Positions 11,099 to 36,594 of a stretch of 64,000 nt of DNA are shown piece by piece (position 1 is the stretch's first letter; each line of letters begins with the position of its first letter). The stretch covers positions 1 to 64,000 of IMG/VR virus record IMGVR_UViG_3300002307_000041; one strand, given 5' to 3'. Position numbers and translations under genes: made by a program. The notes beneath the pieces are model-generated. The model did no database searches, was not told the DNA's origin, and was given only the letters and a program-made list of their open reading frames with translations. This stretch comes from a virus. Taxonomy: Duplodnaviria; Caudoviricetes.

Positions 11099-11127
11099 TT
11101 GACAAGTCTATAAACAGATGTTATAAA
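11099..11127 (+). promoter_or_regulatory. sigma70 promoter of tmRNA
   Basis: TTGACA-N17-TATAAA. Confidence 0.8.
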
Positions 11128-11134
11128 TAACATA

Positions 11135-11445
11135 CTGTTGTTGATAGCAAAGCAATAAAACGATCAGGACCCGGGGGCGGTACCCGGCGACTCCACCATA
11201 AGCACTAACGCATTAGCTGCACCAGAAATGTCGTATGCAGGGGAATGTAAGTCGAGTAGTGCTTATGATGGGGTCGAAACAGGATCGACTGGCGTATAAA
11301 GGTTGAAGTAGACAGTCCGGCGAAAGCTCGGTTAACGCAATAAAACTTATAGATGCAAACGACAACGTTGCAACTTATGAAATGGCTCTAGCAGCTTGAT
11401 TTCAATGGGCTGGCGACTTGCCTGGAAACAGAAAAGTCGCATTTT
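11135..11445 (+). ncRNA. ssrA: two-piece (circularly permuted) tmRNA, tag ANDNVATYEMALAA
   Basis: Acceptor piece ends CGACTCCACCA at 11198; 5' GGGGTCG at 11270 pairs with it including G3-U70; tag ORF 11355-11399; outer ends approximate. Confidence 0.92.
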
Positions 11446-11513
11446 TCTTTAAATATTAATACTTTTCAACCTCCTCCGAAACTAAGTATAATACACGTAG
11501 AGAGGAGACTACA

Positions 11514-28546: not shown

Positions 28547-28818
28547 TGATAAAGTTAAAATGGCACGGAGATTTACCAGAAAATCTTTCCGAGATCGAGG
28601 AAACGGTTATTAAGGATTTAGAAAATATACACGACGACCTTGATGGAGATCCGAGTCCATTAATTTTCCATCACGTATTTTTAGAGAAGAATCACAACGG
28701 ACCATTAGTATTTGTGTGGGGTGAGTCGGGAGATAATGATCAATATCATTGTGAATATGATCCAAATCCAAAATGGGAAAGTATTAATTCACTTGACAGC
28801 AACGAAGAATTAAGTTAG
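28546..28818 (+). CDS. hypothetical protein
   Basis: TAATG coupling. Confidence 0.6.
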   Translation: MIKLKWHGDLPENLSEIEETVIKDLENIHDDLDGDPSPLIFHHVFLEKNHNGPLVFVWGESGDNDQYHCEYDPNPKWESINSLDSNEELS

Positions 28819-28821
28819 TAT
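28793..28821 (+). promoter_or_regulatory. sigma70 promoter for Gly/Ser tRNAs
   Basis: TTGACA-N17-TAGTAT. Confidence 0.75.
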
Positions 28822-28837
28822 AAGTAATAATAGAGAC

Positions 28838-28911
28838 GCGGGGTTGGCATATGGGTTGTGCATCAGCCTTCCAAGCTGAAGAAAGGAGTTCGAATCTCCT
28901 ACCCCGCTCCA
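28838..28911 (+). tRNA. tRNA-Gly(TCC)
   Basis: Cloverleaf, loop CTTCCAA, CCA end. Confidence 0.93.
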
Positions 28912-28915
28912 AAGT

Positions 28916-29007
28916 GGTGAGATGGCCGAGAGGCTTAAGGCAACGGTTTGCTAAACCGTCGTACCTAGAAATGGGTACCCAGGGTTCGAATCCCTGTCTC
29001 ACCGCCA
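28916..29007 (+). tRNA. tRNA-Ser(GCT)
   Basis: Long variable arm, loop TTGCTAA, GCCA end. Confidence 0.95.
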
Positions 29008-29032: not shown

Positions 29033-29061
29033 TTGACAAGAATATAAATATAATGTATAAA
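29033..29061 (+). promoter_or_regulatory. sigma70 promoter of attenuated tRNA operon, overlapping two TATAAATA boxes
   Basis: TTGACA-N17-TATAAA; TATAAATA at 29043 and 29056. Confidence 0.8.
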
Positions 29062-29081
29062 TAAAAGACAATAAGGAATAC

Positions 29082-29168
29082 GTGAGTTCAACAATGTCAA
29101 AGCATATGAATCAAATTTGCAAATATAACCGTTGGTATGAAGATGCCAGGGGGGTTCTTGTACGTTGA
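29082..29168 (+). CDS. candidate attenuator leader peptide MSSTMSKHMNQICKYNRWYEDARGVLVR
   Basis: TAAGGA then GTG 29082; in-frame ATGs at 29094 and 29106; stop lies inside the antiterminator hairpin. Confidence 0.65.
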   Translation: MSSTMSKHMNQICKYNRWYEDARGVLVR

Positions 29169-29224
29169 TGTGAGACTCACATTTGTACTTTGAACCCCGG
29201 GTTTAATTACTCCGGGGTTTTTTT
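29151..29224 (+). terminator. attenuator: antiterminator (29151-29198) versus intrinsic terminator (29193-29224)
   Basis: GGGGTTC/GAACCCC pairing shares AACCCC with the AACCCCGGG/TCCGGGGTT stem + T7. Confidence 0.8.
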
Positions 29225-29245: not shown

Positions 29246-29404
29246 ATGAAGTGGCCTAAATTACTCAATGAAATGTATCAGGCTTGTTTAGCACATGATA
29301 CTATTAAAGAGAAGGAACTGTTTATGAAGGCTTTGAAAAAGAATATCAAAGCCCGTAATAAGCATAAGAAAGTCACAGTACCGCAAGTAACAGTGCGAGG
29401 CTGA
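29246..29404 (+). CDS. 52-aa basic protein (not in ORF track)
   Basis: Strong SD AAAGGAGG; MKWPKLLNEMYQACLAHDTIKEKELFMKALKKNIKARNKHKKVTVPQVTVRG*. Confidence 0.65.
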   Translation: MKWPKLLNEMYQACLAHDTIKEKELFMKALKKNIKARNKHKKVTVPQVTVRG

Positions 29405-29626
29405 ACGTATAAACAGGCTGCTGCTCCCTAAGCATAAGAGCAGCCCTCGACCGGTACGTGGATCCAGATGGACGTACAAGTGGTTTCCGGCGAGGAGTAT
29501 GTTGGAGGTATTTCTCCACAAACACATCGTGCCAATATGGTACTACCCTGTTATAAAGATACATAGTATCCTAGGGGCTGCTGTTCCGAGGGTGCGGAAT
29601 ACGGTGTGCTTATGCAGAAATAATTT

Positions 29627-29703
29627 GGCCGCGTAGCTCAGTTGGTTAGAGTATTAGCCTGTCACGCTAAGGGTCGCCGGTTCGAGCCCGGTCGCGGTCG
29701 CCA
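29627..29703 (+). tRNA. tRNA-Asp(GTC)
   Basis: Cloverleaf, loop CTGTCAC, GCCA. Confidence 0.95.
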
Positions 29704-29709
29704 TACAAT

Positions 29710-29783
29710 ATCGGTGTAGTATAATGGTAGTGCAAGGGTCTCCAAAACCCTGAGCGTGGGTTCGATTCCTACCACCGGTGCCA
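29710..29783 (+). tRNA. tRNA-Trp(CCA)
   Basis: Loop CTCCAAA, GCCA. Confidence 0.93.
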
Positions 29784-29789
29784 AATTAA

Positions 29790-29864
29790 TGGCCCATAGC
29801 TCAGGGGTAGAGCACAGTCCTGATAAGACTGGGGTCGGTGGTTCAATCCCACCTGGGCCAACCA
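29790..29864 (+). tRNA. tRNA-Ile(GAT)
   Basis: Loop CTGATAA, ACCA. Confidence 0.93.
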
Positions 29865-29869
29865 TATAT

Positions 29870-29951
29870 GGGCAAATGTGAGGGGAATGGCTAACAGCTG
29901 GGGCCCGCAAGGGGGCTGTTAGAACGGGTTCAAGTCCCGGTTTGTCCACCA
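29870..29951 (+). ncRNA. tRNA-like RNA with no anticodon loop and an Ala-type acceptor
   Basis: GGGCAAA/TTTGTCC + ACCA, T-loop TTCAAGT, central hairpin capped by GCAA. Confidence 0.65.
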
Positions 29952-29955
29952 ATAG

Positions 29956-30032
29956 GCCGGTAGGGCGGTTGCGGCAATCGCGCTAGTCTCATACACTAGT
30001 CTAAGATGTTTCGAGTACATCTACCGGCACCA
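29956..30032 (+). tRNA. tRNA with CAT anticodon (elongator Met or Ile2)
   Basis: GCCGGTA/TACCGGC, loop CTCATAC, ACCA. Confidence 0.85.
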
Positions 30033-30045
30033 GATAAATAAAATT

Positions 30046-31122
30046 ATGATAATAAATTCACATTCAACCTCCGGACTTTGTAGCACTTGTTATCGAGATT
30101 TACCGGCACAGATAGAATATAGAGATGACGGCGCAGCATATATAATAAAAACATGTCCAGATCACGGATATGAAGAAGCAATGATTGAAAGATCTTGGGA
30201 ATTTTGGAAAGATATGCCGCAGAATAATCCAAATAATAGAACATATGCTGCATATAATATGACAATGATAGAAGTTACTGATCGTTGTAATGTGATGTGT
30301 GCTCATTGCTATCATATACCTAATAATAAAATAAAAGATCAACCAGTTGATGTAATAGTAAACAAAGCAATACGCCAACAAGCTGGTGCAATATGTCTTA
30401 TTGGTGCAGAACCTACAATGCGAGATGATCTTGACGAAATTATTAAGGGAATTATAGCTAAAAAACCACCAATTATTACAACTGTAGGTACAGTTTCAAA
30501 TGGTATTAGAATAGCTGATAAAGATTATCTAAAAAAATTAGAAGATGCAGGTCTTTGGGATATGTCAATAAGCATACATAATCCTAAATATCATAAAGAT
30601 ATGATATGGGAAAAAGTTAATAAGGGGCTAACTAACTTATTAGAAAGTAATATACATTTAGGACAAGTGGGATTTACTGTAGAAAATTATGAAGAAATAA
30701 AATTTGCAGTTGACAAGATATTATGGTTTAAAAATAACGGTTATAATGCAGGGGATTATTGTATAAGATCTCCAGGAGATATCGGTACAATAGTAAAACC
30801 GGAAGATGAAATATTTGCTAGCGATTTAGTCAGAATGATCAGTCAATATGCAGAAGAAAAGAATATTAGTTTTGAAAAACATCCAAATTATGGAAGTAAT
30901 CCATATCATGTAGGATATTTGTTAGATGGTATAAGCATACAAGTAATTCATTGGCCCGGAGCTAGAACTGTTGATACTCGATGGATGAATATTGGTCCTT
31001 GGGCTGAATTTATTCCTAATAGCAGAGGATCTTTTGTATTACAAACAATTCTTAGAGACGGCTGGAAAAAAGGATGGTGGCAAGGGCAACAGTTATTATC
31101 TATCAATGTCGATAAAAATTAA
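30046..31122 (+). CDS. radical SAM protein with N-terminal Cys-rich domain
   Basis: CNVMCAHC (CxxxCxxC), GAEPT; N-terminal CSTC...CPDHG. Confidence 0.88.
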   Translation: MIINSHSTSGLCSTCYRDLPAQIEYRDDGAAYIIKTCPDHGYEEAMIERSWEFWKDMPQNNPNNRTYAAYNMTMIEVTDRCNVMCAHCYHIPNNKIKDQPVDVIVNKAIRQQAGAICLIGAEPTMRDDLDEIIKGIIAKKPPIITTVGTVSNGIRIADKDYLKKLEDAGLWDMSISIHNPKYHKDMIWEKVNKGLTNLLESNIHLGQVGFTVENYEEIKFAVDKILWFKNNGYNAGDYCIRSPGDIGTIVKPEDEIFASDLVRMISQYAEEKNISFEKHPNYGSNPYHVGYLLDGISIQVIHWPGARTVDTRWMNIGPWAEFIPNSRGSFVLQTILRDGWKKGWWQGQQLLSINVDKN

Positions 31123-31872
31123 TGAATTTTGCGATTCTTGTATTTTAGATAACGTATGGTTACTAAGATCTAGTGTTGGAAAAACATATTTTAGATATTC
31201 TAAATGTTCATTAGGCGTAGGATGCAAATCTGCTACTTTTCCTAACCGATCATGATATAAAATTGGTCTAGATTTTTTAGAATACCAATCGCTATTATTG
31301 AGTATTTCAAACACTGTAGTTGGTATATCTTTAATATCATTATGATATAATTTTAATAATTCACTATAATCATCATCTACTATAATGTTGTCAATAGACA
31401 ACATTTTATTATTAATTGCTAATTTGGGCAAATTTTGATGTAACTCGCTTTTCATATATAGTGGCAACATTAGAAAAAATCTATAATTTATTTTTAGATT
31501 ATCTAAAAAGGATTTAGCTGAGGCAATCAGTGCTAGATCTCTTTTTAGATAAAAGTATTCATCGGCAAACTTTTTAACAAACGAGTCTGGGTATACGACA
31601 CTATTAAAAATAGTTCCTGCGTTTACCCATTCATTGTTAATGAAATGATCTTCTCTAGCAGTATTAGTCCACATTATCATAACAGTATCGTTGCCGTTTA
31701 GATTGTAAGATTTGCAACATTCTATTAGTTTTATAAAAATCTGTAAATTACCACTACCACTGGCACCAAAATTATAAAATTCATTAGCTTCACAACCCAA
31801 AATATCGGCCCAAGTCATCCATCGATATTGTGTAAAACTACAGCCAAAGGTAAAAAGTCTATCATACATCAT
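31096..31872 (-). CDS. SGNH-like hypothetical protein
   Basis: FGCSFT, GASGSGN, DLHPT. Confidence 0.65.
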   Translation of the reverse strand: MMYDRLFTFGCSFTQYRWMTWADILGCEANEFYNFGASGSGNLQIFIKLIECCKSYNLNGNDTVMIMWTNTAREDHFINNEWVNAGTIFNSVVYPDSFVKKFADEYFYLKRDLALIASAKSFLDNLKINYRFFLMLPLYMKSELHQNLPKLAINNKMLSIDNIIVDDDYSELLKLYHNDIKDIPTTVFEILNNSDWYSKKSRPILYHDRLGKVADLHPTPNEHLEYLKYVFPTLDLSNHTLSKIQESQNSLIFIDIDR

Positions 31873-33297: not shown

Positions 33298-33741
33298 ATG
33301 AATTACAAGGGCACTAAAGATAAAAAGTTTATTTGTAAAAATTGTAATAATGAATTTCCGTTTAAGGGATATAGTTCTAATCACATATATTGTTCTTTAG
33401 AATGTTCAAAAGAATTTGTTAATACAAATAAAAATAGAGTGAATGAACAACGATTTGAAGATTGGTTATCTGGTAAACCATTAGGAGTTAAGAATTCAAG
33501 ACCAATTATAAAAGAATTTGTTATCCGAAGAGATGGTTATAAATGTTCTAGTTGTGGAATAGATAGTTATAATGGAAAAGAAATTACATTATGGCTCGAT
33601 CATATTGATGGTAATGCTGCTAATAATAGACCAAATAATTTTAGACTGATTTGCCCAAATTGCGACAGTCAATCGGATACATTTGGTGCTAAGAATTATG
33701 GTAAAGGAAGAAAATCTAGAGGATTGCCACAATATGGCTAA
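33298..33741 (+). CDS. HNH endonuclease
   Basis: CSSC...LDHIDGNAANNRPNNFRLICPNC; N-terminal CxxC/CxxxC. Confidence 0.88.
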   Translation: MNYKGTKDKKFICKNCNNEFPFKGYSSNHIYCSLECSKEFVNTNKNRVNEQRFEDWLSGKPLGVKNSRPIIKEFVIRRDGYKCSSCGIDSYNGKEITLWLDHIDGNAANNRPNNFRLICPNCDSQSDTFGAKNYGKGRKSRGLPQYG

Positions 33742-34191: not shown

Positions 34192-34266
34192 GCCGCTGTA
34201 GCCGAATGGTAAGGCAGCACATTAGTAATGTGAAGATTGGGAGTTCGATTCTCTCCAGCGGCACCA
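34192..34266 (+). tRNA. tRNA-Thr(AGT)
   Basis: GCCGCTG/CAGCGGC, loop TTAGTAA, ACCA. Confidence 0.85.
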
Positions 34267-34312: not shown

Positions 34313-34717
34313 ATGAAAACGTATATATGTCAACAATGCGGAACAGAACATAAACATAGGGGTATAAACTTCTCTAACAAATATTGTAATAATAAATGCC
34401 AACAAGAATATCAATATGAGAATCGCATAAAACAATGGTTAGAAGAAGGAAGTGATTGGAAGATTCAAGCTCCAAATTGGGTTAAACGATATCTTTCTGA
34501 ACAACGAGGATATCACTGTGAAGTCTGTGAAATTACAGAACATAATGGCAAACCTATAGGATTAGAATGCGATCATATAGATGGTAATCCTAATAATAAT
34601 AAACCAGAGAATTTAAGATTGATTTGTCCAAATTGCCATTCGCAAACTAAATCATTTAAGGGCGCTAATAGAGGTAATGGTAGACAGAAAAGATATCATA
34701 AAGATTTGATTGATTAA
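34313..34717 (+). CDS. HNH endonuclease (paralogue of 33298-33741)
   Basis: CEVC...CDHIDGNPNNNKPENLRLICPNCH. Confidence 0.88.
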   Translation: MKTYICQQCGTEHKHRGINFSNKYCNNKCQQEYQYENRIKQWLEEGSDWKIQAPNWVKRYLSEQRGYHCEVCEITEHNGKPIGLECDHIDGNPNNNKPENLRLICPNCHSQTKSFKGANRGNGRQKRYHKDLID

Positions 34718-35720: not shown

Positions 35721-35885
35721 ATGGCTAGAAGTTTCTGGGGGAAAGCAGGTAATATTAACCTGCGTGGGAAAAAGTCTTTGAGATTGCGTTGTCGCTGTTG
35801 TGTCTGTCAAGACCTAAGAGGACGCATTGAAAAGATGCGTATACAGCGTGAAATTAAGGAAATGATAGAAGCTATTGGGGAATAG
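35721..35885 (+). CDS. 54-aa basic Cys-rich protein (not in ORF track)
   Basis: GGAG SD; CRCCVC motif. Confidence 0.5.
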   Translation: MARSFWGKAGNINLRGKKSLRLRCRCCVCQDLRGRIEKMRIQREIKEMIEAIGE

Positions 35886-35951
35886 TTCAGTTGGTAGAAC
35901 GCCAGATTCTGATTCTGGATGTCCGTGGTTCGAATCCATGTTCCCCAGCCA
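35876..35951 (+). tRNA. tRNA-Gln(CTG)
   Basis: Loop TTCTGAT, GCCA. Confidence 0.93.
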
Positions 35952-35960
35952 ATATTGTAT

Positions 35961-36034
35961 TGGGGTGTCGTCTAATGGTAGGACGCAGGATTTTGATTCC
36001 TGCTATCGTGGTTCGAGTCCATGCACCCCAGCCA
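35961..36034 (+). tRNA. tRNA-Gln(TTG)
   Basis: Loop TTTTGAT, GCCA. Confidence 0.93.
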
Positions 36035-36048
36035 ATACTAAATATACG

Positions 36049-36594
36049 ATGAGACAATTTATAGATATATTTGAAACTAAAAGAGAAGATATAACGCTAG
36101 AGAAACTACCTTACAAAGTAGACGACCTGGCTCCTATTCTCAGCGGCGATAATGTAGACTATCACTATCACGTATTAAGCAAAGGATATGTGGACCGCTA
36201 CAATAACGGCGAAGGCGATCCTGCATTTAACCTCGGAGGGGCTAAACTACATAATATGTGGTGGGCGCAACTGCACCCTAGAGAAGGATTAAACAATCCG
36301 TCGGGTGCCATAAAAGATTTCATAGAGAAGAACTACGCTAGTATGGGCGGCTTCATAGAAGCTATGACTGAGACTGCTAAAAGCATACAGGGCAGTGGAT
36401 GGGTGTACCTAGCAAAAAGCGGCGACATAAAAACAACACCAAATCAAAGTTTTAAAACAGATATCATATTACCTATAGATATGTGGGAGCATAGTTGGGC
36501 AGACTATACTCCGTCTAAGAACGCCAAAAAAGACTATATTAGATCGATAATGAAGATAATTAATTATGATATCATCAACGAGAGGTTGAGATAA
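36049..36594 (+). CDS. Fe/Mn superoxide dismutase
   Basis: LEKLPY, YHYH, LHNMWW, QGSGW, DMWEH: all four metal ligands present; true start at MRQF. Confidence 0.9.
   Translation: MRQFIDIFETKREDITLEKLPYKVDDLAPILSGDNVDYHYHVLSKGYVDRYNNGEGDPAFNLGGAKLHNMWWAQLHPREGLNNPSGAIKDFIEKNYASMGGFIEAMTETAKSIQGSGWVYLAKSGDIKTTPNQSFKTDIILPIDMWEHSWADYTPSKNAKKDYIRSIMKIINYDIINERLR

Follow-up and report, generated by a model that had tools for sequence, protein, structure and literature searches.

The 64,000-nucleotide (nt) stretch of viral DNA analysed here, positions 1 to 64,000 of the IMG/VR virus record IMGVR_UViG_3300002307_000041 and hereafter called the window, carries an element at 29033-29224 in which a promoter, a short open reading frame (ORF) and two competing RNA hairpins precede a block of transfer RNA (tRNA) genes. 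Its sequence and its conservation suggest a ribosome-dependent transcription attenuator, operated through the leader ORF and heading the first tRNA sub-operon of a freshwater jumbo phage, a reading that we hold with a probability of roughly 0.6. The window is part of an 85-kb virus contig estimated to be 23% complete, which marks its source as a jumbo phage, and its DNA is recurrent in freshwater and lake metagenomes. Upstream, tRNA-Ser(gct) ends at 29007; downstream, a 52-codon ORF begins at 29246. The element between them consists of the following parts:

29033-29061 (+), sigma-70-type promoter, with the -35 hexamer at 29033-29038, a 17-nt spacer and the -10 hexamer at 29056-29061
29066-29081 (+), short 5′ leader with a Shine-Dalgarno-like purine block at 29073-29077, invariant in seven of nine lineages
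29082-29168 (+), leader ORF of 28 codons, with a GTG start at 29082 and the stop codon at 29166-29168
29132-29149 (+), small hairpin of 7 base pairs (bp) with a 4-nt loop, over the invariant Trp codon at 29133-29135
29151-29198 (+), antiterminator, a long imperfect hairpin with its 5′ arm from 29151 and its 3′ arm at 29192-29198
29193-29224 (+), intrinsic terminator with a G+C-rich stem (29193-29201 paired with 29211-29219), a folding energy of -17.2 kcal/mol and seven T/U at 29218-29224

The promoter, the 28-codon GTG ORF, the G-rich and C-rich pairing strands and the terminator had been located by a first-pass annotation made by a model from the letters alone, and all of these coordinates are correct on the sequence. 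The leader ORF begins about 14 nt past the predicted transcription start, behind the purine-rich Shine-Dalgarno-like block; an in-frame ATG at 29094, whose position is conserved, would give a product of 24 codons. The antiterminator joins a G-rich strand (29151-29157) to the complementary C-rich strand (29192-29198), holds the stop codon of the leader, and shares 6 nt of its 3′ arm with the 5′ strand of the terminator; the two structures are mutually exclusive. The 163-nt transcript folds better than all 200 of 200 dinucleotide shuffles (z = -3.5), and the 55-nt antiterminator segment alone reaches -23.6 kcal/mol (z = -3.6). In the full-length fold, the 5′ leader can also pair with the terminator U-tract and the next 4 nt (10 bp). 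A consensus scanner listed neither the promoter nor the terminator, since its rules do not allow for a -10 hexamer with a final A or for a terminator loop of more than 8 nt. The element is present in one copy per genome, and neither the window nor its relatives contain a second copy or a paralogue.

An element with the same layout occurs in nine diverged lineages of uncultured freshwater jumbo phages, and it is therefore more than a chance arrangement. The first homologue was obtained by a profile search of loci around homologues of a neighbouring 182-residue protein, and two more by a search across the whole contigs of the closest relatives. Viral and metagenome contigs were then scanned for exact patterns and the hits filtered by nhmmer with a profile of the earliest members, which raised the count to nine lineages. 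Scans with the 18-mer and terminator patterns returned mostly unrelated promoters and terminators, which nhmmer removed, and a scan of genome contigs gave unrelated matches only. No further members were found in 50 more contigs that code the neighbouring protein, and more distant relatives are without the element. Between these phages, identity is 55-69% for the neighbouring protein and, by optimal alignment, 46-64% for the variable part of the leader ORF, the latter being near saturation. The geometry of leader ORF, antiterminator and terminator, which the first-pass annotation had proposed from the window, is thus borne out by nine lineages in which the frame is open, the structures are kept and the element always heads a same-strand tRNA block. 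The comparison of related leaders that it had recommended, for a short ORF together with hairpins, finds both kept in all nine.

At the 5′ end of the element, the -35 and -10 hexamers are invariant and the spacer varies across lineages, and in seven of the nine lineages the promoter and the first 13 transcribed nt are invariant. The same 18-nt motif of -10 hexamer and initial transcribed region also stands before unrelated genes in other viral contigs (L097, L098-L100, L102), and may be a common strong early-promoter module of this phage and host group.

The leader ORF is maintained as a frame. It spans 22-28 codons in all nine lineages and ends at a near-identical position, and a Shine-Dalgarno-like block and a start codon are present in every one. 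Stops number 37 in the other two frames and none in the ORF frame of any lineage. The variable part, from the conserved ATG to the Trp codon, measures 30, 33, 36 or 45 nt, which are multiples of three in all seven lineages measured. Composition-preserving (dinucleotide) shuffles of this part stay open 27-50% of the time, and the product of these probabilities for the eight lineages besides the window is about 3e-4, with frame preservation not yet counted. No conserved ORF is found on the minus strand. The peptide sequence behaves differently from the frame: the window and L118 differ by 15 non-synonymous codons and one synonymous codon, close relatives show approximately neutral ratios, and the Asp-to-Pro and Tyr-to-Ser replacements in the small hairpin are exactly those that preserve base pairs. 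The single invariant codon of the leader in all lineages is the Trp codon. An open frame kept over a drifting amino-acid sequence implies that the act of translation, and not its product, is selected, as would be expected of an ORF maintained for the sake of being translated.

This history of the frame bears on the possibility that the element acts purely as RNA and that its open frame is incidental. It might then regulate in cis, as a riboswitch-like leader or one bound by a protein, or be a processing signal, with the helix that closes the 5′ and 3′ ends as an RNase III substrate. The strong conservation of structure is consistent with such an RNA, as are the loop of the small hairpin, which is conserved in most lineages, and the pairing of the 5′ end with the U-tract region, which is possible in all lineages (10-14 bp). 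Retention of the ORF in nine lineages through in-frame length changes, however, is very unlikely by chance, the Shine-Dalgarno-like block and start codon are always there, and the Rfam leader, riboswitch and T-box families give no covariance-model match within 29033-29224 at E values up to 1. A purely non-coding role is therefore considered highly improbable.

The RNA structures are also conserved, and their relative positions vary within narrow limits. A small hairpin of 6-7 bp covers the Trp codon in all lineages, with several pairs changed on both sides. When each sequence is folded independently, the antiterminator segment forms one long hairpin in all ten sequences, which cover the nine lineages, with energies of -17.6 to -25.2 kcal/mol and z values of -3.0 to -5.8; its basal, middle and apical helices differ in sequence and register between lineages. 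In all 11 sequences from the first seven lineages, the antiterminator pairs 6-8 of the 8 core nt of the terminator 5′ strand, and the overlap with this strand is found in L180 and L173 too. The terminator is kept in every lineage, with -14 to -19 kcal/mol and 6-7 U. The stop codon lies 9-20 nt past the start of the antiterminator 5′ arm (15 nt in five of the nine lineages) and 24-32 nt before the start of the terminator, and the Trp codon is separated from the downstream 5′ arm by 18-22 nt (18 nt in the window).

An attenuator built in this way would operate as follows. Host RNA polymerase would initiate at the conserved promoter, and a ribosome would load onto the short leader ORF. Quick translation to the stop codon, 15 nt into the 5′ arm of the long hairpin, would bring the ribosome to cover that arm, leaving the C-rich strand free for the terminator to form and transcription to end at about 29224. 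Were the ribosome to come late, stay away or wait at a codon as far as roughly the invariant Trp codon, the long hairpin would instead form first and sequester 6 of the 8 core nt of the terminator 5′ strand (29193-29200), and polymerase would then read into the genes beyond. A pause at the small hairpin over the Trp codon may keep polymerase and ribosome in step. Slow translation would thus probably raise tRNA output through the element. That the ORF is translated, that the switch runs in this direction and that its signal is general decoding speed, possibly Trp decoding, we infer from the order and spacing of the parts.

The first-pass annotation had further proposed that the element gates the phage tRNA array. 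The features on either side of it in the window are as follows:

28793-28821 (+), promoter-like site upstream of the element, followed by tRNA-Gly(tcc) at 28838-28911 and tRNA-Ser(gct) at 28916-29007
29246-29404 (+), 52-codon Lys-rich ORF with a strong ribosome-binding site, 20 nt past the terminator
29405-29626 (+), conserved structured RNA between the element and the tRNAs, its first ~115 nt common to six lineages
29627-30032 (+), first tRNA block behind the terminator, tRNA-Asp(gtc), tRNA-Trp(cca), tRNA-Ile(gat) and tRNA-Met(cat)
30046-31122 (+), gene for a radical-SAM protein with an N-terminal zinc ribbon and radical SAM domains, directly after tRNA-Met

The putative read-through unit of the window would comprise the small ORF, the structured non-coding RNA (ncRNA), the four tRNAs and, as its last gene, the radical-SAM gene, which is followed by a convergent gene at 31096-31872 (minus). 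Of the tRNAs, only tRNA-Asp, -Trp, -Ile and -Met lie behind the terminator and before the convergent gene. The proposed gating does not extend to the rest of the array: tRNA-Gly(tcc) and tRNA-Ser(gct) lie upstream of the element and therefore outside its control, and a near-consensus promoter without a leader directly precedes each of at least four later tRNA clusters, as the annotation itself had cautioned in noting that internal promoters could bypass control. The element therefore gates at most a sub-operon and not the array.

Across the nine lineages, same-strand tRNAs are found 25-404 nt downstream of the element in every case, and what lies between terminator and tRNAs is, depending on the lineage, the 52-codon ORF, the conserved structured RNA, or nothing but the tRNAs themselves. 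In the five lineages found earlier that are without a strong intervening promoter, the stretch from the terminator to the next gene or tRNA has no sigma-70-like site above 9/12; in L173, which lies outside the promoter scan, the first tRNA begins 25 nt past the terminator. Downstream expression in these lineages therefore needs read-through. In the L103 group (L103, L112, L115, L119), tRNA-Glu lies about 40 nt past the terminator, and at L103:12395-12440 (minus), and likewise in L112, L115 and L119, a promoter (11/12) starts in the last bases of the terminator U-tract region.

The 52-codon ORF matches no Pfam or PHROG family, and sigma-70 scans show no strong promoter of its own. Five lineages have it and others do not, and in one lake contig 29226 is joined directly to 29413; the ORF thus behaves like an optional insertion. 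Among DNA contigs from other lakes, some forms lack the small ORF and some the whole element. Relatives of the structured RNA are found at L113:5810-5922 (minus), L180:3078-3200, L007:7835-7951, L101:7450-7546 and L118:1817-1913 (minus), with paired changes in the first stem; in L108/L113 and in L180 it stands directly behind the terminator. It has no Rfam match over 29405-29626. Homologues of the radical-SAM protein, at 51-58% identity, lie within tRNA arrays in two of the four relatives found.

Several observations weigh against the attenuator. No clustered regulatory codons are present in the leader, and no amino acid occurs in tandem repeat. The ribosome-binding site stands close to the GTG, at 4 nt, a short spacing about which the first-pass annotation had rightly been cautious, and far from the conserved ATG, at 16 nt. 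Consensus folding with RNAalifold on MAFFT alignments recovers the small hairpin and the 5′/3′ closing pairs, and for the antiterminator yields just three invariant G-C pairs; this poor yield is due to the helix registers that differ between lineages, and independent folds of each sequence were used for the antiterminator instead. No conserved segment pairs with the antiterminator 5′ arm, and the small hairpin does not pair there either, so that an untranslated transcript is predicted to read through. Folding with ribosome masks, a check suggested at the outset, gave a divided result. A ribosome mask at the stop codon, and at no other position, moves the equilibrium fold of the L086- and L108-type sequences from antiterminator to terminator. 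The window is among the 7 sequences, of 11, whose equilibrium fold contains the terminator for every ribosome position, and the switch must therefore be kinetic. Finally, the L103 group and L108/L113 have a near-consensus promoter behind the terminator and ahead of the first tRNA, and the element there looks like a self-contained unit.

The element as a whole may instead be a self-contained short transcription unit, giving rise to an abundant small RNA and a translated micro-ORF ahead of a constitutive terminator, with the RNA or the peptide acting in trans and the downstream genes expressed by leak-through or from other promoters. The invariance of the promoter and initial transcribed region in seven of nine lineages would suit such a unit, and so would a terminator of the strength given above that is favoured at equilibrium in most lineages and is followed by a near-consensus promoter in two lineages. 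There is also a precedent in the trans-acting attenuator RNA and leader peptide described in PMC7968998. Against such a unit, the peptide sequence is without purifying selection, and a search of the 64-kb window for complements of the conserved 5′ end found none with two mismatches or fewer. Moreover, a plain gene or small RNA has no need of a long hairpin that rivals its own terminator, or of a stop codon fixed in the 5′ arm of that hairpin, and in several lineages the next gene or tRNA is without a strong sigma-70-type promoter. A self-contained unit is thus judged unlikely, though likelier than a purely non-coding role.

A further question is what the leader would sense. The first-pass annotation held that the peptide appears to sample the whole tRNA pool. 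The window peptide does contain 18 different amino acids, among them all 17 that have a tRNA, and lacks Phe and Pro; this count is right and extends from the window to the whole 85-kb contig. The accompanying claim of a match to the Arg tRNAs was overstated, since CGT, which is used twice, is not the standard match for the tRNA-Arg with anticodon TCG. Compared with equal-length segments of the phage's own proteins or with random open stretches, the diversity of the window peptide is rare (p ~0.002-0.006), and the leader peptides are far more diverse than protein segments of 24-28 residues. This comparison was dropped as evidence, since a composition-preserving null, in which the variable half is shuffled with dinucleotides kept and an open frame required, removes most of the signal. 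By this measure the window does not stand out (p=0.31 for its diversity, p=0.086 for its 17/17 coverage), and neither do six other lineages (p 0.17 to 0.98). Two lineages are outliers: the 28 residues of L118 include all 20 amino acids (p=0.0004), and the 25 residues of L180 include 19 (p=0.013). The high diversity largely results from the joining of an A-rich unstructured half to a G+C-rich structured half.

Coverage was also assessed by leader swaps, in which each lineage's own leader and the leaders of other lineages were compared for coverage of the amino acids of the downstream tRNAs. For the first tRNA block, own leaders cover 27 of 27 amino acids over the nine lineages, against a mean of 24.3 for swapped leaders (p=0.03, a value inflated by the co-inheritance of leaders and arrays). 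The difference fades to p=0.09 for the first two blocks and p=0.15 for whole arrays. Within the L103 group, leaders that contain Phe accompany an array with tRNA-Phe. Relatives' leaders omit one to three tRNA-bearing amino acids (His, Asp, Gln, Ser or Val), and Ala occurs in most leaders although none of the genomes examined has a tRNA-Ala. These results give a weak hint of matching between the leader and its proximal tRNAs, and do not support sampling of the whole pool as a family trait.

The broader proposal built on such sampling was that of a counter-defence switch, in which a codon for every phage tRNA would let the loss of any of them, for instance to a host anticodon nuclease, stall the ribosome and turn on the whole array. 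The full coverage in the window, the extreme values of L118 and L180, the complete first-block coverage and the company of Phe codons and tRNA-Phe in the L103 group are what it would predict, as is the excess over protein segments. Phage tRNAs are moreover known to counter tRNA-targeting defences (PMC10264068, PMC11464382, PMC11555353). Against it stand the origin of most of the diversity in the two-half composition, the omissions and the tRNA-less Ala codons of the relatives, whole-array coverage no better than that of swapped leaders, and the position of most window tRNAs behind other promoters. Pool sampling on this scale is accordingly improbable.

A narrower version retains the attenuator and ties it to the tRNAs that it immediately precedes. 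The element would then act as a homeostat of decoding speed, with the leader tuned to the proximal tRNAs, so that their shortage would raise replacement tRNAs, the ncRNA and the small basic protein. The presence of all first-block amino acids in the leaders of nine out of nine lineages points in this direction, as does the invariant Trp codon, which lies where a waiting ribosome would free the antiterminator; tRNA-Trp is among the first three downstream tRNAs in most lineages. This extension is offered tentatively, as a possibility that we regard as rather doubtful in its specific form. If it is true, the tRNA shortage could stem from codon demand, from starvation or from a tRNA-cleaving host defence.

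Phage tRNA genes are usually regarded as constitutively expressed cargo. An attenuator ahead of them would mean that phages measure decoding performance and adjust their tRNA supply by a translation-sensing switch, a type of feedback already known from amino-acid and resistance genes. The role of phage tRNAs, whether codon supplementation or escape from tRNA-targeting defences, is actively debated (PMC10264068, PMC11464382, PMC11555353). As a compact, testable cassette of about 190 nt, the element would offer an entry to the signal that large phages read during infection and to the roles of the adjoining ncRNA and small protein. In the literature searched, the coverage of which is incomplete, no description of leader-peptide or leader-ORF control of tRNA genes or operons was found. 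A possible precedent, a leader-peptide-like region upstream of an E. coli tRNA-Phe gene, was dropped as a lead, as no such ORF lies upstream of pheV, the one such gene examined.

Other features of the window concern the phage and its array more generally. The window DNA encodes ribonucleotide reductase, ClpP, tail and baseplate proteins, a two-piece transfer-messenger RNA (tmRNA) and 24 tRNAs. The tmRNA gene, a permuted form detected by ARAGORN at 11102-11490, specifies a 14-residue tag that ends in Ala-Leu-Ala-Ala. Permuted tmRNAs are typical of alpha-proteobacteria, some beta-proteobacteria and cyanobacteria, and the type may serve as a hint to the host. Two small HNH-endonuclease-like ORFs, at 33298-33741 and 34313-34717, lie between tRNA clusters and may be homing elements that shuffle the tRNA array. 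A tRNA-Thr with anticodon AGT (A34), at 34192-34266, is kept in nearly all related arrays. An Fe/Mn superoxide-dismutase-like ORF at 35875-36594, counted from its first TTG, overlaps two tRNA-Gln genes, and its true start probably lies farther downstream than that TTG.

Among known systems, T-box leaders offer a functional analogy only. They are terminator/antiterminator switches that read tRNA supply and control genes of the decoding apparatus, and differ in that the T-box RNA binds uncharged tRNA directly and needs no ORF; the element has no match to T-box families, and no specifier or T-box motifs are seen in it. The rnTrpL/peTrpL system of Sinorhizobium would be a model for the reading as a self-contained unit, since there both the terminated attenuator transcript and the leader peptide can act independently (PMC7968998). 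It differs in that its leader contains Trp codons and sits before trp genes, whereas the element shows no trans target in the window.

The classical attenuators (trpL, hisL, pheL, leuL, thrL and the ilv leaders) share more of the architecture. They too have a promoter-proximal short ORF, a terminator 5′ strand with an alternative pairing partner upstream, a leader stop codon at which an arriving ribosome blocks the antiterminator, and a hairpin over the control codons that, in the element, is a possible pause hairpin. The distance of about 18 nt from the Trp codon to the antiterminator 5′ arm resembles the spacing between the Trp codons of trpL and its segment 2. Unlike them, the leader here has no run of codons, each of its 13-20 amino acids occurring one to four times, and it has no 1:2 structure and no predicted super-attenuation. 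The genes downstream are tRNAs, an ncRNA and small ORFs and not biosynthetic enzymes, the element is phage-encoded, and it shows no sequence or covariance-model similarity to the Rfam leader families.

In logic, by analogy, the closest known systems would be the ribosome-mediated attenuators of translation-rescue and resistance genes. In the leaders of msrDL-msrD, vmlR, lmo0919, vgaA and lmrC, a short ORF is combined with an intrinsic terminator and general ribosome stalling leads to read-through (PMC10314930). The known signal for these leaders is a ribosome-bound antibiotic, and the known cases are without downstream tRNA genes. In msrDL, the stalled ribosome itself obstructs the terminator (PMC10314930), whereas the stop codon here lies 24-32 nt from the terminator and the effect would pass through the antiterminator hairpin. 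What the element would have in common with this type is a stalling that is not specific to one amino acid, and the regulation of genes that act on the translation apparatus, giving a feedback on its capacity.

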